Below are positions 1-7,384 of a stretch of 7,384 bases of DNA, in pieces. Within the stretch, counting starts at the first letter, position 1. Every line of letters begins with the position of its first letter. The stretch comes from a virus. Taxonomy: Duplodnaviria; Heunggongvirae; Uroviricota; Caudoviricetes. The stretch spans positions 1 through 7,384 of the IMG/VR virus record IMGVR_UViG_2606217102_000023; one strand, given 5' to 3'. The notes under the pieces were generated by a model. That model did no database searches. It had not been told where the DNA came from and saw only the letters and a list, made by a program, of their open reading frames with translations. The position numbers and the translations under genes were made by a program.

Positions 1-180
1 CGCTTATGGGAGCAAATCCCCGCCTCATTAGAGGTCAACGTAGCTTAGAAACCATCAAATTCATCATGCATTTTTTTCATATCAACCCCCTCATAGAAAT
101 CATAACCACGTTTTGTGGTTTTTGTGATGCATAAACTACATCAAAGGCAAGCTACGGTCAAATATATGGGCATGCTTACC

Positions 181-207
181 TGCACAAAAGTGCACAAATT
201 TGCACAA
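181..207. repeat. Three TGCACAA direct repeats phased at exactly 10 bp (181-187, 191-197, 201-207); a fourth copy lies at 273-279
   Basis: Read directly from the sequence: tgcacaaaag tgcacaaatt tgcacaa. Helical-turn phasing suggests a protein-binding array; function unknown. Confidence 0.5.
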
Positions 208-529
208 TTTTTTTGAACGACTTTTTACCCTTCCGGCCCGCGTGGCAGCTGGATCCGTCAGGGATCCGTGCATGCACAAAAAAACGCGTTTTTGTTGCGC
301 GCAGGTGCCGGGGGAACAGCCCGCAATTTGGGGTCTGAAAGCATCCTCAGAAATCGCCAGAAATGCTGCTGATTGTGCCCCTGACGCGATGTTTTATTGG
401 TTGTGTGGTGAAGTATGGGCTGATGCATCACATGCCTGTGATGCACTTTGATGCGACGTGTGCTGACAGGTTATTCAACCTGGTAGATCCCTGAGATGCC
501 TGGTGCGTGACACACCGGAGCTGGTGAGT

Positions 530-553
530 CGGGGCATAAATTTTTATGCCCCG
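530..553. other. Palindromic hairpin (11-bp arms cggggcataaa / tttatgccccg) 27 bp beyond the portal stop, no T-tract on either strand
   Basis: Near-perfect inverted repeat read directly. It is not followed by a U-run in either orientation, so it is not a canonical intrinsic terminator. Confidence 0.4.
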
Positions 554-579
554 GAGAAGCAGCAGACAAGCGGAGCGCG

Positions 580-1629
580 TCAGGATATGGGCGGGGTATC
601 CAGCAGTGCGTAAGGGTTAAAACGGATCACCTCTTCGCCCAGCCAGTCATTAACGTGCTTCATCGCCTCCATCACCGGCATCAGTTCGTTGATCGCAAAC
701 ACTCTGGCCGCCTTCTCCACATCACCAAAAGAACCCTGCCCGCTGGGCATTGCGCCCATCAGTTGTGGTGGTACACGGTGAGCGGCCAGCACATCATCAC
801 GGGAGGCCGCCTTGACGTTCATGAACTCATCCCGGGCGGTGATCTGCTGGAATGGCAGGATTTGCACACCGTCCTTCCCGCCGTTCGGTGCCTGGAGTAG
901 CAGGTTCTTGAATGCCCCACCGCCTCTTGCGCCCTGCAACGCTCTTTCGAGAGCCTGCATACTTTCGCGATCAACCTGTGCTGCCCCCACGTAAATGATG
1001 CAGCCTGCATGTGAACCGTTGTCATAGTAGAGTTTGCGGAAGCGATCTGCCGAGTGCGACAGACTGGCAGACAACAGGCCACCGAGATATTCCGGCATTC
1101 CGTACATCTCCTGGTTGATGTCGGGGTTCAGCACATGGCAGACGCGCCCCTGACGGAACTCGTGGTCCTGCTCCCCCGTCTGCACAAACCAGTACACATC
1201 CGGCTCAACACCACGACGGACGTATTTTGCCAGCGCGTGCCGTAGTTCCAGTTTTCCGCCCAGCCTGTTGGTGCGCAGTTCAAGAAACGCATTCCCGAAG
1301 ACAAACCAGTCCAGCGCAAAGGCGGAGAACGCCTGCCGGGAGAGCAGCCGGTGCGGAATGAAGCAGCCCAGTATGGCATTCCGCTTGAAGTACAGCGCCG
1401 ACTGGTGCCACGAGGTCTGCCGGGATGCCCGCGCCAGTCCGTACCAGTCAACGGGCGTTTCGTAGTATCTGCCGTTACTCAGGCAGTATGCGTTATCCAG
1501 CAGGTCGAGTGCGTGCGCATCGTAAGGGCCGTCGAACGAGAAGGCGCTTAACGACGGCTGGCGGCGCAGTGCCTCTGCCAGCGCCACGCCGTCATCGCGG
1601 CGCGAATATTTTCGTTTTTGTTTTTTCAT
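580..1629 (-). CDS. Phage portal protein (P2 gpQ / PBSX-type, 349 aa)
   Basis: Intact 349-aa ORF, a length typical of P2/PBSX-family portals (P2 gpQ is about 344 aa from memory). Its ATG overlaps the stop of the upstream terminase fragment (TGATG on the minus strand), matching the P-then-Q order of the P2 packaging operon. Family call is from recollection, not a search. Confidence 0.75.
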   Translation of the reverse strand: MKKQKRKYSRRDDGVALAEALRRQPSLSAFSFDGPYDAHALDLLDNAYCLSNGRYYETPVDWYGLARASRQTSWHQSALYFKRNAILGCFIPHRLLSRQAFSAFALDWFVFGNAFLELRTNRLGGKLELRHALAKYVRRGVEPDVYWFVQTGEQDHEFRQGRVCHVLNPDINQEMYGMPEYLGGLLSASLSHSADRFRKLYYDNGSHAGCIIYVGAAQVDRESMQALERALQGARGGGAFKNLLLQAPNGGKDGVQILPFQQITARDEFMNVKAASRDDVLAAHRVPPQLMGAMPSGQGSFGDVEKAARVFAINELMPVMEAMKHVNDWLGEEVIRFNPYALLDTPPIS

Positions 1630-2195
1630 CAGAACTCAATCACCCGCATTCCTGTTGCACCGTCCTCATCGCCCAGCGGCTCGTTAATGACGGCAAGCAT
1701 GGTTGCCCACGCGAGGTCGCCGTGGTTTACGCCGCGTGTGCGGTCTGTTTCATACGTTATTGCCCCGCCCGCCGTTTTTGCCTTGCGCACAGCGTTGAAT
1801 GCCCTGACCAGCTCACGTTCGCCCCGGTCATACTCCCAGCGCCCCGCACGAATAATCTGCAGCATCTTCAGCACAAGCGCGCGTTTGGATGCCAGCGTGA
1901 ACGTGTACGGCACGGCGGCAGGCCAGAACCGCCGCACTATCTGGTACACTGCCTCACCGTTACCGCCGGTCACGTCGATACCAATGTGCTGGACGTTGTA
2001 TTTGTGCGTGAACTGCTCAATCACACGGGCCTGCTCTTCAAATTCCAGCCCCTGCACCTGCAACGTCTCCACCGTGCGGAATTTGCCGCCCCTGACGGCA
2101 GGCGGTACAACAACAGACAGCGCCCCGCTGACGTAGCAGGAAACAGGGGGATTTGCCCCTGTTTTTTTGTTCAGAATGCAGCCTTCACCATTCAT
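1629..2195 (-). pseudogene. Terminase large subunit (P2 gpP-like), 3' fragment covering only the C-terminal nuclease domain; 5' two-thirds absent
   Basis: The translated ORF carries a GIDVTGGNGEA motif and an HGDLAW motif consistent with a terminase nuclease domain, and sits directly upstream of the portal with stop/start overlap. About 170 homologous codons remain where roughly 590 are expected. The first codons of the ORF (about 2140-2195) run through a hairpin/T-tract and gpU-derived DNA, so they are a spurious extension. Confidence 0.65.
2144..2168 (+). terminator. Hairpin (cagggg / cccctg, 6-nt loop) plus T7 run; part of repeat copy A
   Basis: Stem, loop and T-run read directly. The same hairpin-T7-ttcagaatgcagcc arrangement recurs at 2921-2965. 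Confidence 0.4.
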
Positions 2196-2300
2196 CTCTA
2201 ATCGTATTCAGTAATTCGCCCGCAGAAACAAACTAAAATTCATCCCCCGCATCACGCCACTGAAAGCAGACGGTAAACTCCAGATTTTCAAACCAGCGTC
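2175..2300 (-). pseudogene. Decayed second copy of the gpU-like gene 3' end (copy A of a diverged direct repeat)
   Basis: Nucleotide alignment to 2953-3080 by eye (shared ttcagaatgcagcc, agttcgcccgcagaa, catcac.ccgctgaaagc). In the gpU frame it reads FENLEFTVCFQWRDAGDEF*...SAGELLNTIRDEW*, against KKIEFSISFQRCDEDMRERFQSASAGELLNALKDKMPVAAF* in the intact gene. Two in-frame stops. Confidence 0.55.
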
Positions 2301-2534
2301 AGAAGTATTTAAATGGCACCAGATGTAATATGCAGGCGATTAATATGGTGTGCTTAAAGATCATAAAAGCGGGCAACATTAAAACTCCGGGCTGTGTAAA
2401 TTACCGCCACTCATAATCAGAGATGAAAACAGAATTAAACTGGCGGAGTGGATTGTATACATAAAATAAGTTCAGTTGTTGACTTTCACTTCCGTGAATT
2501 GATGAAGGTTATTACAATACATCGGTATGATCTC

Positions 2535-2559
2535 TCCTCCTTAAAAGGGAGGACTTTTC
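2535..2559 (+). terminator. Weak hairpin (tcctcc / ggagga) followed by cttttc
   Basis: 6-bp stem with 7-nt loop read directly. The T-tract is short and interrupted, so this is the weakest of the four. Confidence 0.3.
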
Positions 2560-2615
2560 AGAACGCAGAAATTATTTATAATCCCGTAGTGTTCTATACA
2601 TGCAAACATTCTTTT

Positions 2616-2639
2616 CCCGCCCCGTGCGGGCTTTTTTTT
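2616..2639 (+). terminator. Rho-independent terminator (cccgc / gcggg stem, T8 run)
   Basis: GC stem with 5-nt loop immediately followed by eight T, read directly. Confidence 0.6.
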
Positions 2640-2705
2640 GCCGCAAAGATACAGTAACAAACAAAATTGTAATCATGGCAATCAAAACACGAGAAACATT
2701 TTCAG

Positions 2706-2738
2706 CAATTGCAATAACAAATTAAAATATTGCAATTG
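2706..2738. promoter_or_regulatory. Inverted repeat CAATTGCAAT-N13-ATTGCAATTG (operator-like), right arm overlapping the -35 of the adjacent promoter
   Basis: Perfect 10-bp arms read directly, each containing the palindromic core ATTGCAAT, with arm centres about two helical turns apart. Confidence 0.45.
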
Positions 2739-2759
2739 ACAATCCCCGCTTAATATAAT
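2730..2759 (+). promoter_or_regulatory. Sigma70-like promoter: -35 ttgcaa (2730-2735), 18-bp spacer, consensus -10 tataat (2754-2759)
   Basis: Hexamers and spacing read directly. A perfect ttgaca also sits at 2736-2741 but only 12 bp from the -10, so it is not the functional -35. Confidence 0.4.
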
Positions 2760-2766
2760 CCCTTCC

Positions 2767-2827
2767 GGAACATAGAACATTAAATCTTCACACAATGCAT
2801 GTTGCCCTCTTTATGAGGGCTTTTTTT
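2767..2827 (+). ncRNA. Candidate small RNA of about 60 nt, from the predicted start after the promoter to the terminator T-run
   Basis: Promoter at 2730-2759 and intrinsic terminator at 2804-2827 bracket a short unit with no ribosome-binding site and no credible ORF. Purely structural inference, not homology to any known sRNA. Confidence 0.25.
2804..2827 (+). terminator. Rho-independent terminator (gccctc / gagggc stem, tttat loop, T7 run)
   Basis: Perfect 6-bp GC-rich stem, 5-nt loop and seven T, read directly. Confidence 0.6.
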
Positions 2828-2862
2828 ATTTCCAGAATATCACCATTGCCATCATCGGGCGA

Positions 2863-2890
2863 TTTATATATAGTCAGAATGTATTGACAA
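2863..2890 (-). promoter_or_regulatory. Minus-strand sigma70-like promoter: -35 ttgtca (plus 2885-2890), 16-bp spacer, -10 tataaa (plus 2863-2868)
   Basis: Hexamers read from the reverse complement. It would drive leftward transcription antisense to the candidate sRNA. Confidence 0.3.
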
Positions 2891-2920
2891 CATTTTGCTT
2901 CTTTTCCATGAAGGCCATAA

Positions 2921-2950
2921 GGGAGTGCTTTTTACACTCCCTCTTTTTTT
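2921..2950 (+). terminator. Hairpin (gggagtg / cactccc, 7-nt loop) plus T7 run, abutting the gpU-like stop; part of repeat copy B
   Basis: Perfect 7-bp stem and T-run read directly. Oriented to stop plus-strand transcripts before they run antisense into the gpU-like gene. Confidence 0.55.
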
Positions 2951-2952
2951 AT

Positions 2953-3411
2953 TCAGAATGCAGCCACAGGCATTTTGTCTTTAAGCGCGTTCAGCAGTTC
3001 GCCCGCAGAAGCAGACTGAAACCGCTCTCTCATATCCTCATCACACCGCTGAAAGCTGATGGAAAACTCAATCTTTTTTGCCTTTCCGTAACGATCCAGC
3101 TCGGAGCGGGTGGTCTGTAATCCTGTAATCACGTACATTCCGTAAATCTGCCCCGTGCCATCAATCAGCGGCCAGGGACATCCGGTGTAGGCCTGGGTGT
3201 TCAGCAGTGTCAGTGACACCTCACCACCGGTAATTTCCGGGTACAACAGACCGGACAGCGTGATCTGATCGTCACCTGCGCCAATATACTGCCAGGCCGC
3301 AGAGCGGTTAATGCGCTCATTTTTCACATGTCGCCATGTTTTGCTCTGCTGGATCTGCTGATGCGGAAGCGTTTTCAGCTCAAACACAAACATGCCAAAA
3401 ATCATCATCAT
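2953..3411 (-). CDS. Phage tail protein, P2 gpU-like (152 aa)
   Basis: The N-terminus MMMIFGMFVFELKT and the internal motifs ITLSGLLYPEITGG and WPLIDGTGQIYGMYVITG fit the P2 GpU tail-protein family as I recall it. Strong ribosome-binding site on the minus strand (AGGAG, 8 nt before ATG). No tape-measure gene upstream and no gpD downstream, so it is an orphan in a degraded tail module. Confidence 0.6.
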   Translation of the reverse strand: MMMIFGMFVFELKTLPHQQIQQSKTWRHVKNERINRSAAWQYIGAGDDQITLSGLLYPEITGGEVSLTLLNTQAYTGCPWPLIDGTGQIYGMYVITGLQTTRSELDRYGKAKKIEFSISFQRCDEDMRERFQSASAGELLNALKDKMPVAAF

Positions 3412-3616
3412 AATTGCGTCTCCTTTAGTCCCTGTCGCGGAAGCTGTTCATGCCTGTACGCGCCTGTCTGCGCATCTCTTCGCGGACGGCCTCACCAACC
3501 AGTTTTGCCAGTTCGCGCGGATTCTGTGTGTTGACGTTGTGCAGATGTACATGTATCTCACCGGAAAACGCAGCAGCCTGTGGTTGTGGCGTAGCTTCCC
3601 TTCTGGCCGCTTCGTC

Positions 3617-3874
3617 GTGTCTTTTCCGTGTCCTTTTTGTGGTGCGAGCACACGCACCCGCACCAGTCGCGCAGCGAACGATACCGGAACTGTCCGCTGG
3701 AAACTCTGCCAGTGCAACAACCCGGAATGCAGTCTCTCCTTCTCGACGCTGGAGAGTTTCGACAAAATCACTGTTAAACGTTATGGCTGCACTTCACAGG
3801 ATATTCCGTGGCAAAGCCTGCCTGCGTCTCACCGGGGTGATACGCAGTTGTCACTGCCGTTTCCGGTAATGTGA
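3617..3874 (+). CDS. Ogr/Delta-family zinc-finger transcriptional activator (about 85 aa from GTG 3617; in-frame ATG starts at 3545 and 3551 are alternatives)
   Basis: Translation MSFPCPFCGASTRTRTSRAANDTGTVRWKLCQCNNPECSLSFSTLESFDKITVKRYG aligns by eye with P2 Ogr (MFHCPLCQHAAHARTSRYITDTTKERYHQCQNVNCSATFITYES, from memory): CPxC, RTSR and the C..CS.xF.xES finger are shared. The gene is buried in the C-terminal half of the 160-aa ORF 3392..3874. Start codon uncertain, with no clear ribosome-binding site. Confidence 0.65.
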   Translation: MSFPCPFCGASTRTRTSRAANDTGTVRWKLCQCNNPECSLSFSTLESFDKITVKRYGCTSQDIPWQSLPASHRGDTQLSLPFPVM

Positions 3875-3930
3875 GCACATGCCTGTTTTTGTTTTTGTTT
3901 CTGTATTATTTTGATTCTGGAGTTTTATTT

Positions 3931-4695
3931 TTGACCGGATTTCAACAACGCATCGTGACCGAAAACCCCCGCCTGTACTGTGGCGACGCACTGGCAGTAT
4001 TACCGCATATTGAGCCGGACAGTGTGGACGCACTCATCACCGACCCGCCCTACAGTTCCGGCGCGACACACAAAGCCGGACGCAGCCTTCAGGGCAGCCA
4101 CGCAAAATATCTGAACAGTGAGAGCCTTCACCGCTTTGAGGGCTTCGCAGGTGAAAACATGGATGCCCGTTCATGGGCATACTGGATGCAGTTGTGGATG
4201 ATGCAGGCGTACCGCGCCGTCAGGCCGGGAGGGTATGCTCTGGTCTTTTCCGACTGGCGACAATTACCCGCCCTGACCGATGCTTTTCAGGCAAGTGGCT
4301 TTACATGGCGCGGCATTGTTGTCTGAAACAAAGGAAGAGCGGCGCGAACGCCTCATGTGGGGTATTTCCGGCATCAGTGCGAATTTATGGTATGGGGCAG
4401 CAAAGGCCATCTGGATAAATCCCCGAACGGCCCGTTTGACGGCTGTATGTCGTTTCCGGTCAGGCCGCAAAAGAAACTGCATCCGACCGGAAAACCGGAA
4501 GCGCTGATGGCAGAGTTGATCAGGACAGCAGGCGACGGCGGCACAGTCCTTGACCCGTTCATGGGATCGGGAACCACAGGCGTTGCCGCACTGAAAGCGG
4601 GCTGCAAATTCATCGGCATCGAGACAAGCCCGCACTACTTCAGTGTGACTGTTGAGCGACTGCGGCAGGCGCAGTTGATCCCCGCAGCAGCATAA
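3931..4695 (+). pseudogene. Beta-class DNA methyltransferase (N6-adenine / N4-cytosine type), interrupted by one in-frame TGA at 4324-4326
   Basis: Motif IV DPPY (ITDPPYSS) lies N-terminal and motif I FMGSGTT C-terminal, the beta-class order. ORFs 3871..4326 and 4357..4695 are in the same frame, separated only by TGA at 4324-4326. That TGA falls where the family has a conserved Trp (IVV*NKG here; E. coli YhdJ has RIVWSYD from memory). Probable start is TTG 3931 with GGAG 8 nt upstream; the stretch 3871-3930 is T-rich low-complexity sequence and probably non-coding. Confidence 0.8.
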
Positions 4696-4735
4696 GAAAA
4701 AGCCCGCGCATAACAGTGCGGGCTTTATGTTTCTC
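4696..4735 (+). terminator. Rho-independent terminator after the methyltransferase gene
   Basis: Stem agcccgcgc / gtgcgggct (one G-U pair), 6-nt loop ataaca, followed by T-rich tttatgtttctc and preceded by an A-run, read directly. Confidence 0.6.
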
Positions 4736-4767
4736 GAATATTTGGACACTACGTGGACACTGGAAGA

Positions 4768-4798
4768 TATTGATTTAAAAATCCTTTTTAAATCAATA
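4768..4798. repeat. 31-bp AT-rich palindrome (14-bp arms tattgatttaaaaa / tttttaaatcaata, 3-bp spacer) just upstream of the copA promoter
   Basis: Perfect inverted repeat read directly. It is all A/T and so more likely a protein-binding site than a terminator. Two TGGACACT direct repeats lie just before it at 4743-4750 and 4754-4761. Confidence 0.45.
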
Positions 4799-4809
4799 AT
4801 ATTAATTTC

Positions 4810-4840
4810 TTGACCTTCCCCTTGCTGGAAGGTTTAACCT
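4810..4840 (+). promoter_or_regulatory. copA promoter with CueR operator: -35 ttgacc, 19-bp spacer containing the dyad accttcc-N7-ggaaggt, -10 taacct
   Basis: Matches the published MerR-type architecture of PcopA (19-bp spacer with CueR dyad), read directly. Ribosome-binding site aaggag at 4868-4873, 6 nt before the ATG. Confidence 0.85.
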
Positions 4841-4879
4841 TTATCACAGCCAGTCAAAACTGTCTTAAAGGAGTGTTTT

Positions 4880-5091
4880 ATGTCACAAACTATCGACCTG
4901 ACCCTGGACGGCCTGTCCTGCGGTCACTGCGTTAAACGCGTGAAAGAAAGTCTTGAACAGCGTCCGGATGTTGAGCAGGCGGATGTGTCTATCACTGAAG
5001 CGCACGTTACCGGGACTGCCAGTGCAGAACAGCTGATCGAAACCATCAAACAAGCGGGTTATGACGCATCTGTAAGCCACCCAAAGGCTAA
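4880..5091 (+). CDS. copA: CopA(Z), a 70-aa copper chaperone made by programmed -1 ribosomal frameshifting inside copA
   Basis: Slippery heptamer C CCA AAG at 5080-5086 (codons 67-69, H-P-K). After a -1 slip the next codons are GGC then TAA (5089-5091), giving 69 aa + Gly. This matches the frameshift product described for E. coli copA (Meydan et al. 2017, from memory). Confidence 0.7.
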
Positions 5092-7384
5092 ACCGCTGGC
5101 GGAGTCATCAATCCCGTCGGAAGCACTGACAGCGGTTTCTGAGGCGCTTCCGGCAGCGACCGCCGATGACGATGACAGCCAGCAGTTGCTGCTGAGCGGC
5201 ATGAGCTGCGCCAGCTGTGTCACCCGCGTACAAAATGCGCTGCAAAGCGTACCGGGCGTCACTCAGGCACGGGTAAACCTGGCGGAGCGTACTGCGCTGG
5301 TGATGGGCAGTGCCTCCCCACAAGATTTAGTGCAGGCGGTGGAAAAAGCGGGCTACGGCGCGGAAGCGATTGAAGATGACGCTAAACGCCGCGAGCGCCA
5401 GCAAGAAACCGCCGTCGCTACGATGAAGCGCTTCCGCTGGCAGGCAATTGTCGCACTGGCGGTGGGTATCCCGGTGATGGTCTGGGGGATGATCGGCGAT
5501 AACATGATGGTCACCGCTGACAACCGCAGCCTGTGGTTGGTTATCGGCCTGATAACCCTGGCAGTGATGGTTTTCGCCGGCGGCCATTTTTACCGCAGTG
5601 CATGGAAAAGCCTGCTGAACGGTGCGGCGACGATGGATACGCTGGTGGCGCTGGGTACTGGCGTGGCGTGGCTCTATTCGATGAGCGTCAACCTGTGGCC
5701 GCAGTGGTTCCCGATGGAAGCGCGACATCTTTATTACGAAGCCAGCGCGATGATTATCGGTCTGATCAATCTCGGCCATATGCTGGAAGCGCGCGCACGC
5801 CAGCGTTCTTCTAAGGCGCTGGAAAAGTTACTCGATTTAACCCCGCCGACGGCACGCCTGGTTACTGACGAAGGTGAAAAAAGCGTGCCTCTGGCAGAAG
5901 TGCAGCCAGGTATGTTGCTGCGCCTGACGACCGGCGATCGCGTGCCGGTAGATGGCGAGATTACCCAGGGCGAAGCATGGCTGGATGAAGCGATGCTGAC
6001 GGGCGAACCAATCCCGCAGCAAAAAGGCGAAGGCGATAGCGTCCATGCCGGGACAGTGGTACAGGACGGCAGTGTGCTGTTTCGTGCCAGTGCGGTTGGC
6101 AGCCATACTACGCTGTCACGAATCATTCGCATGGTGCGCCAGGCCCAGAGCAGCAAGCCAGAAATCGGTCAGCTGGCGGATAAAATCTCAGCCGTATTTG
6201 TGCCGGTAGTGGTGGTTATTGCGCTTGTCAGTGCGGCAATCTGGTATTTCTTTGGTCCGGCACCGCAGATTGTCTATACCCTGGTGATTGCCACCACGGT
6301 ACTGATTATTGCCTGTCCGTGTGCGCTGGGGCTGGCGACGCCGATGTCGATTATTTCCGGCGTCGGGCGGGCGGCTGAGTTTGGCGTGCTGGTGCGGGAC
6401 GCTGACGCGCTGCAACGCGCCAGTACACTCGACACTGTAGTGTTCGATAAAACCGGGACGCTGACTGAAGGGAAGCCGCAGGTTGTCGCAGTGAAAACAT
6501 TTGCTGATGTTGATGAAGCGCAGGCATTGCGTCTGGCGGCGGCACTGGAGCAAGGTTCCAGCCATCCGCTGGCACGAGCGATCCTCGATAAAGCAGGTGA
6601 TATGCAGCTACCGCAGGTCAACGGTTTCCGCACATTGCGCGGGCTGGGCGTGAGCGGTGAAGCTGAAGGTCATGCGTTATTGCTGGGCAATCAGGCGCTG
6701 TTAAATGAGCAACAGGTTGGTACCAAAGCTATCGAAGCGGAGATTACTGCTCAGGCATCGCAAGGGGCAACGCCTGTGCTGCTGGCGGTTGACGGGAAAG
6801 CGGTAGCCCTGCTGGCAGTACGCGATCCGTTGCGTAGTGATAGCGTGGCGGCGCTGCAACGCCTGCATAAAGCGGGATATCGTCTGGTGATGTTGACCGG
6901 GGATAACCCAACCACCGCCAATGCGATCGCCAAAGAAGCAGGGATTGATGAGGTGATCGCCGGGGTGCTGCCGGACGGTAAAGCCGAAGCGATCAAACAT
7001 CTGCAAAGTGAAGGACGTCAGGTGGCAATGGTGGGCGACGGCATTAACGACGCGCCAGCGCTGGCTCAGGCGGATGTCGGCATTGCGATGGGTGGCGGCA
7101 GTGATGTTGCCATTGAAACCGCGGCGATTACCCTGATGCGCCATAGCCTGATGGGCGTTGCGGATGCGCTCGCTATTTCCCGCGCAACGCTGCACAACAT
7201 GAAGCAGAACCTGCTCGGTGCGTTTATCTACAACAGTATCGGTATTCCGGTCGCCGCCGGTATTTTGTGGCCGTTCACTGGAACACTGCTTAACCCGGTA
7301 GTTGCCGGAGCGGCAATGGCGCTCTCGTCGATTACCGTAGTGAGTAACGCCAACCGGTTGCTGCGGTTTAAACCGAAGGAATAA
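4880..7384 (+). CDS. copA: Copper-exporting P1B-type ATPase CopA (834 aa)
   Basis: Two N-terminal metal-binding domains with GLSCGHC and GMSCASC, the transmembrane CPC motif (IACPCALG), the DKTGT phosphorylation site and the GDGINDAP hinge. Length and sequence match E. coli CopA as I recall it. Confidence 0.97.

Follow-up and report, generated by a model that had tools for sequence, protein, structure and literature searches.

The right end of a P2-like prophage remnant beside copA of Escherichia coli raises the question of whether a late-gene activator gene that lies concealed in a longer reading frame, and faces the tail gene gpU at a distance of 205 bp, is a real gene, how it came to occupy this place and whether it can still act. 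The window, i.e. the whole stretch of DNA analysed (7,384 nucleotides, positions 1 to 7,384 of the IMG/VR virus record IMGVR_UViG_2606217102_000023), is E. coli chromosome, its right third being occupied by copA (4880-7384) and the rest by the prophage remnant. Proteins of the Ogr/Delta type are small C4 zinc-finger proteins that turn on the late (head, tail and lysis) operons of P2-like phages by binding to a TGT-N12-ACA dyad upstream of each late promoter and recruiting RNA polymerase. The explanation which we regard as very probable is that the window holds a genuine ogr gene in the wreck of a P88-like prophage, where deletion would have orphaned it from its Shine-Dalgarno (SD) sequence, its upstream DNA and its candidate targets, leaving what is most likely a silent relic. 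The features of the window are collected in Table 1.

Table 1. Features of the window, with coordinates, strand and the basis of each assignment
Feature	Coordinates	Strand	Basis
Portal gene (gpQ-like)	580-1629	-	Pfam Phage_portal, RefSeq; 97% identical to the strain 135 prophage
Large terminase C-terminal fragment (gpP-like)	1629-2129	-	Pfam Terminase_6C; RefSeq "missing N-terminus"
Intact tail gene gpU, formerly at the end of the FI-FII-E-T-U operon, whose promoter is lost	2953-3411	-	Phage_P2_GpU, RefSeq
75-codon N-terminal extension of the 160-aa ORF, spurious	3392-3616	+	Antisense to the first codons of gpU and to the end of the tape-measure gene
gpT tape-measure 3' remnant, last 62 codons and stop, without start codon	3425-3613	-	Identity to H1827/12
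Deletion junction, 4-bp CTTC microhomology common to the T side and the ogr-leader side	3610-3613		Three-way alignment, blastn
Gene of the ogr/Delta-family late-gene activator	3617-3874	+	GTG start, 85 codons plus stop, intact ORF
ogr-methyltransferase spacer, T-rich, with GGAG Shine-Dalgarno at 3919-3922	3875-3930	+	Sequence
Cargo N6/N4 DNA methyltransferase pseudogene, TTG start, in-frame TGA at 4324-4326	3931-4695	+	Pfam, NCBIfam, RefSeq
Intrinsic terminator-like hairpin, 11-bp stem	4699-4726	+	Terminator scan; same site in H1827/12
Attachment core, attR copy, 29 bp, TATTAATTTCTTGACCTTCCCCTTGCTGG	4800-4828		Homology boundary, recurrence in strain 135

The initial annotation of this DNA had proposed that the C-terminal 85 codons of a 160-aa ORF form an Ogr-like C4 zinc finger, so that a real ogr gene would be hidden in a longer frame, and had suggested a profile search of the product from position 3617. 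This search gave a significant match of the 3617-3874 product to Pfam PF04606 (Ogr_Delta; E 6.4e-12, 45.6 bits, gathering cut-off 26.3), in which residues 5-51 were aligned with profile positions 2-46 of 47; within the 160-aa ORF the match is confined to the last 85 codons. PHROG 603 ("transcriptional regulator") was matched with E 2.4e-11, and RefSeq WP_032201616.1 ("ogr/Delta-like zinc finger family protein") of strain AST19, which differs from the window in one base across the full length, coincides exactly with 3617-3874 and is the identical protein. Both parts of the proposal are borne out by the agreement of Pfam, PHROG and RefSeq. The undeleted strain H1827/12 has the same ogr DNA without a single difference. 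The gene is an already known and already annotated one.

The comparison with P2 Ogr showed 42% identity over 52 aligned residues (E 1e-12), the cysteines C5, C8, C33 and C38 being aligned with the zinc ligands C4, C7, C30 and C35 of P2 Ogr. The spacing is CX2CX24CX4C, with a 24-residue loop as in the Xuanwuvirus homologue, and there is an additional, non-conserved cysteine at position 31. In P2, Ogr is a zinc-binding activator with the pattern CX2CX22CX4C, and four late promoters carry TGT-N12-ACA (PMC3931495). The NCBIfam equivalog for P2-type Ogr, NF007241, gave 33 bits against a cut-off of 116. The product is therefore a member of the Ogr/Delta family and not an equivalog of P2 Ogr.

Among named systems, P2 Ogr (NP_046785.1) and, by family, the B protein of 186 are likewise small single-domain C4 zinc fingers of PF04606. 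The likeness to P2 extends to the place of the gene in the undeleted relatives, directly after D at the right end of the prophage and beside attR, and to a TGT-N12-ACA dyad in the P/O intergenic region of a full-length relative. P2 Ogr comprises 72 residues with an X22 loop, whereas the window protein comprises 85 with an X24 loop and a C-terminal tail conserved only with P88-like homologues. Unlike P2 Ogr, the window protein has a GTG start, and its lineage has an inverted FI-U operon and a cargo gene after ogr; the window copy itself, again unlike that of P2, stands without SD, native upstream DNA or candidate targets. The closest phage homologue is the "transcriptional regulator" of Xuanwuvirus (P88, 500465-2 and 520873; e.g. 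YP_009965331.1), with 59% identity over 81 of the 85 residues, the same cysteine spacing and a common C-terminal motif, IPW..LPASHRG..Q.SLP. Its layout U←T..←FI / D→ogr→cargo is that of the window's lineage, the cargo 3' of ogr being hok/MokW in P88 and a DNA methyltransferase here. Because the identity of the Ogr proteins is only 59%, the window prophage represents a lineage of Peduoviridae related to, but distinct from, Xuanwuvirus. The P88 homologue is present as a 59% identical ORF found by tblastn (NC_026014.1, 34479-34727) and is unannotated in the RefSeq record.

Delta of the satellite P4 belongs to the same family and activates late promoters as Ogr does; it is satellite-encoded and has the finger twice, as a tandem duplication, in a protein of about 166 aa. 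A sequence search of the PDB returned no solved Ogr structure and only a weak match to the N-terminal zinc ribbon of NrdR (PDB 7p37, E 0.0018). The corresponding Pfam family, PF22811, scored 18.5 bits, below its cut-off of 27.2, and the window protein differs from NrdR in having no ATP-cone and in its context, so that the resemblance appears to reflect a common fold motif and nothing more.

The origin of the gpU-ogr neighbourhood was deduced from relatives. Megablast of window 2900-4800 against 5,426 complete E. coli genomes revealed the contiguous arrangement in only six; the remaining matches formed two classes meeting at window 3591/3610, one composed of "tail protein + tape-measure protein" and the other of "ogr + DNA methyltransferase". 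Strain H1827/12 contains both halves about 6.5 kb apart, in the order gpU←T←E←E'←FII←FI and, on the opposite strand, D→ogr→methyltransferase→copA. By blastn, window 2127-3613 corresponds to positions 1-1487 of the H1827/12 locus at 100% and window 3610-7384 to positions 8001-11775 at 99.97%; the deleted segment comprises locus positions 1488-8004, i.e. 6,517 bp between two CTTC tetranucleotides. In a three-way alignment the window tracks the 3' end of T to ...CTTCTGGCCG-CTTC and then the ogr leader from CTTC-GTC-GTG. Lost with this segment were T except for 189 bp (94% of the gene), E, E', FII, FI and D, as well as the ogr leader apart from the last 3-7 nt in front of the GTG.

The two genes are adjacent because this deletion removed those between them, and their adjacency is a deletion scar resembling a rearranged divergent module. 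The Ogr/Delta identity and the deletion model, taken alone, are considered close to certain. The same deletion is found in AST19 and in the EC0026B series, i.e. in no fewer than two strain backgrounds other than that of the window. Since deleted and undeleted strains do not differ in their ogr DNA, the intactness of the ORF says nothing on selection; we infer that it has stayed intact only because little time has passed since the deletion.

Of the 205 bp between gpU and ogr, 189 code for the tape measure, 13 form the T-U spacer containing the SD of gpU, and 3 belong to the ogr leader. The tape-measure part agrees at 100% with the 3' end of the gene for the 1016-aa tape-measure protein of H1827/12, and minus-strand translation of 3425-3613 gives the exact final 62 residues of that protein. 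Two PHROGs were matched at their C-terminal ends, 17114 with E 2.5e-20 and 5431 with E 7e-20, and PHROG 28 (tape measure) was matched weakly in an internal segment (E 0.01). As the interval is mostly tape-measure coding, neither a promoter nor an Ogr box is expected there. The gpU gene (Pfam Phage_P2_GpU, E 7e-40; RefSeq WP_032201606.1) is the last gene of the FI operon and thus has no promoter of its own to test; the promoter of the FI-U operon lay 5 kb away in the undeleted arrangement.

The consequences of the deletion for expression can be read from the ogr leader, which is GAAAAAGGAGGTCTTCGTCGTG in four of four undeleted relatives and CTTCTGGCCGCTTCGTCGTG in the window, the deletion endpoint falling between the SD (AAGGAGG) and the GTG. 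Predicted pairing with the anti-SD at the 3' end of 16S rRNA amounts to -12.3 kcal/mol in the undeleted form and -1.5 kcal/mol in the window, as compared with a window mean of -2.4 and with -8.7 for gpU and -8.5 for copA. All native DNA upstream of ogr is absent, and it is for this reason, rather than from a mapped promoter, that the promoter is taken as lost. A consensus scan of the plus strand at 2959-3617, within 650 bp upstream of ogr, found no sigma-70-like site, and the same kind of scan found none upstream of the native ogr in an undeleted relative; by eye, a weak TTGACG-17-TATCTC was noticed at about 3531-3559. Consensus scans are known to miss many real promoters. Since the deletion took the SD and all upstream DNA, ogr is more likely silent than an active regulator, and it is probably now untranscribed or untranslated, a relic in drift. 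An intact and correctly annotated ORF is thus probably non-functional because a deletion ended between its SD and its start codon, a loss that goes unflagged in automated pipelines such as RefSeq.

It could be argued instead that the orphan ogr is expressed at a low level, by read-through or from a fortuitous antisense promoter in T/U, and is kept in order to trans-activate another P2-like prophage or a P4-like satellite. The ORF is indeed intact with its four zinc ligands, the deletion allele is found in more than one sequenced strain, and Ogr, B and Delta are known to cross-activate among P2, 186 and P4; leaderless or SD-independent initiation at GTG also happens at a low level in E. coli. 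However, the ogr DNA is the pre-deletion allele, which makes its intactness uninformative, the start is a GTG whose SD is gone, the consensus scan found no promoter-like site, and the neighbouring genes are decaying, so that expression of this kind is judged unlikely. It is very unlikely that an SD-less ogr, made in small amounts, would serve as a domesticated trans-activator of a P2-like prophage or P4-like satellite, or would act at the copA promoter region, which comes into question as a target because the att core overlaps the presumed CueR operator (see below).

The targets of the activator were sought as well. No TGT-N12-ACA box had been seen by eye in 3412-3616, and the motif search of this interval agreed in finding no match; the single match in the whole window, at 123-140, compares with 2.1 expected by chance. 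In the full-length prophage of strain 135 an exact TGT-N12-ACA, TGTTGTCGGAGTGTTGCGACAA, is centred in the 151-bp P/O intergenic region, and a near-copy with one mismatch, TGTTGTAGGAGAGCGGCGAGAA, in the 163-bp FI/D region; the 35-kb prophage has eight exact matches, mostly inside genes. A lineage-specific extended box derived from these two sites had no match in the window at three mismatches or fewer, and in strain 135 it finds only its two source sites, its enrichment being circular and not independent evidence. Both the P/O and the FI/D regions, with their candidate dyads, are deleted in the window, and the likely Ogr targets are therefore gone from the remnant.

The strain 135 prophage has one TGTTGT...dyad per divergent late region (21668-21689 and 3034-3055; P/O, FI/D), each nearly midway between the start codons on its two sides, at a distance of 74-83 bp. 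A single Ogr site may thus serve both divergent promoters in the P/O and in the FI/D region; in phage Smp131 a site is likewise shared by the P/O pair (PMC3931495).

The locus had been described as unlike P2 in the orientation of U, which is confirmed by the inverted FI-U block. The order U←T←E←FII←FI / D→ogr was found in H1827/12, in strains 135, 2-1 and TUM9803, in Xuanwuvirus 520873 and in P88. The prophages of strains 135, 2-1 and TUM9803 are full-length and lie at the same copA site; that of strain 135 spans 35 kb between glsA and copA and follows the P2 order save for the inverted FI-U block and the extra methyltransferase. The succession D→ogr→methyltransferase→attR is common to H1827/12 and these three strains, D being deleted in the window. 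P88 is an inducible, viable phage (PMC5285337); a search of that paper for ogr or gene order showed that neither is discussed. The divergence of the FI-U block from D-ogr is thus the standard, ancestral layout of P88-like (Xuanwuvirus-type) Peduoviridae and not a local rearrangement.

These data bear on the earlier reading of the locus as a rearranged right-end module, in which ogr would diverge from gpU over a 205-bp control region, with the activator upstream of, and possibly coupled to, the methyltransferase. The geometry is real, with divergent starts at a distance of 205 bp and the methyltransferase on the strand of ogr, and in intact relatives ogr and the methyltransferase appear to form one unit with a terminator only after the methyltransferase. 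The interval, however, is no intergenic control region: 189 of its 205 bp belong to tape-measure coding DNA that recurs unchanged at the 3' end of an intact gene elsewhere, and it contains no promoter-like or Ogr-box-like site. Moreover, gpU is distal in an operon with its promoter 5 kb away, its adjacency to ogr was produced by the 6,517-bp deletion, and the methyltransferase is a nonsense pseudogene starting at 3931, hence without stop/start overlap with ogr. The synteny comparison with intact prophages that had been suggested places ogr at the right end, as expected, but shows the divergence not to be specific to this locus. The rearranged module is accordingly not upheld; the H1827/12 comparison already appears largely to refute it, and we regard it as highly improbable.

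The position of ogr upstream of, and co-oriented with, a cargo methyltransferase gene at the prophage right end agrees with the ORF coordinates. Pfam N6_N4_Mtase matches both halves of the latter gene, NCBIfam gives a match as well, and RefSeq notes an "internal stop". The TGG to TGA change at 4324-4326 is common to the window and H1827/12, and an intact 254-aa gene is present in strains 135, 2-1 and TUM9803. No terminator-like site was found by a scan between ogr and the methyltransferase; from this and from the strong hairpin after the methyltransferase, D, ogr and the methyltransferase probably once formed one transcription unit.

In the tetranucleotide GTGA at 3871-3874 the ogr stop overlaps a GTG that is in frame with the methyltransferase ORF, and this overlap of the TGA at 3872-3874 had been pointed out earlier. 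It exists in the sequence and seems to have no meaning, the start being assigned to TTG 3931, 57 nt after the ogr stop. Initiation at GTG 3871 would add 20 codons consisting of the T-rich spacer with its length polymorphism, and the site has no SD (-3.0 kcal/mol), whereas TTG 3931 is preceded at the correct spacing, eight nucleotides upstream, by GGAG. RefSeq starts the gene at TTG 3931 and the family profiles start near it, and GTG 3871 is very probably not the start.

At 3882-3899 of the spacer, the window and H1827/12 have one extra GTTTTT/TGTTTT unit relative to strains 135, 2-1 and TUM9803, i.e. a 6-bp tandem-repeat length polymorphism. Position 3967 is the only base of the window that differs from AST19 and H1827/12, being C in place of the A found in every relative; the change replaces Thr by Pro at codon 13 of the methyltransferase pseudogene.

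The 160-aa ORF (plus strand, 3392-3874) remains to be accounted for. In the undeleted strain the antisense frame that forms its first part is already open for 241 codons and unconnected to ogr, to which the deletion joined it in frame by chance. The in-frame ATG, GTG and TTG codons in 3392-3616 include none with an SD (energies +1.2 to -3.1 kcal/mol), and in P2 Ogr and the Xuanwuvirus homologue the first cysteine lies three residues from the N-terminus. The ORF is thus an artefact, a chance antisense frame fused to ogr. That it is translated in full, as an Ogr with a new, deletion-made 75-aa N-terminal domain, is scarcely credible: an open frame does run from ATG 3392 into ogr without a shift, yet the extension has no match in Pfam or PHROGs, is antisense to gpU/gpT coding and was open before the deletion, lacks a start codon with SD and has no counterpart in the P2 and Xuanwuvirus homologues, and the ORF is not called by RefSeq. 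The case is one of annotation hygiene, a small real gene being masked by a longer chance ORF in a mechanical ORF list.

Returning to the explanation favoured here, a P88-like prophage (Peduoviridae) is integrated in the glsA-copA intergenic region, where the native order is int ... A ... Q P / O N M L ... V W J I H G / U T E FII FI inverted / D ogr methyltransferase / attR / copA. One deletion removed the segment from the terminase N-terminus through the tail-fibre genes. The terminase N-terminus and the P/O promoter region are in fact deleted, window 2133 being the limit of homology to the full-length prophage. The other deletion, of 6,517 bp between the CTTC tetranucleotides, placed ogr beside gpU, made the 160-aa ORF and took away the SD of ogr with whatever promoter drove it. 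Both intergenic regions with Ogr-box-like dyads are lost, and the downstream methyltransferase carries its nonsense mutation. A deletion junction in a decaying prophage can in this way mimic a divergent regulatory module.

At the right end, prophage DNA ends at 4799, and core-genome homology begins at window 4800 in 5,423 genomes. In strain 135 the 29-bp att core flanks the full-length prophage on either side, one copy lying beside the integrase end (35850-35878). It includes the TTGACC hexamer and half of a CCTTCC...GGAAGG dyad just upstream of copA, a region which we take to be the CueR-controlled copA promoter. As the core lies within this presumed promoter, the phage would integrate inside the copA promoter/operator and regenerate it. 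Of the 5,426 complete E. coli genomes, only 12 have the element at the copA site. Scans of the window with Rfam and for tRNA genes found nothing, and a repeat search around the ogr locus gave only short repeats at chance level.

At the left junction, positions 2134-2415, chiefly 2157-2288, contain a second, diverged fragment resembling the 3' end of gpU, in direct orientation and 72-73% identical to 2939-3077. It lies between the terminase fragment and a tail-fibre-assembly remnant, and the roughly 280 bp around it are without counterpart in the full-length relative. This pattern points to a second P2-like element at the left deletion junction, which either recombined there or left a remnant. 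The early region of the lineage (26092-27367 of the strain 135 prophage) encodes ParM, "plasmid partitioning/stability" genes and a ParE-like toxin, an unusual cargo for a P2-like integrated prophage; in AST19 a copy of the partitioning gene survives by IS421, just left of the window.
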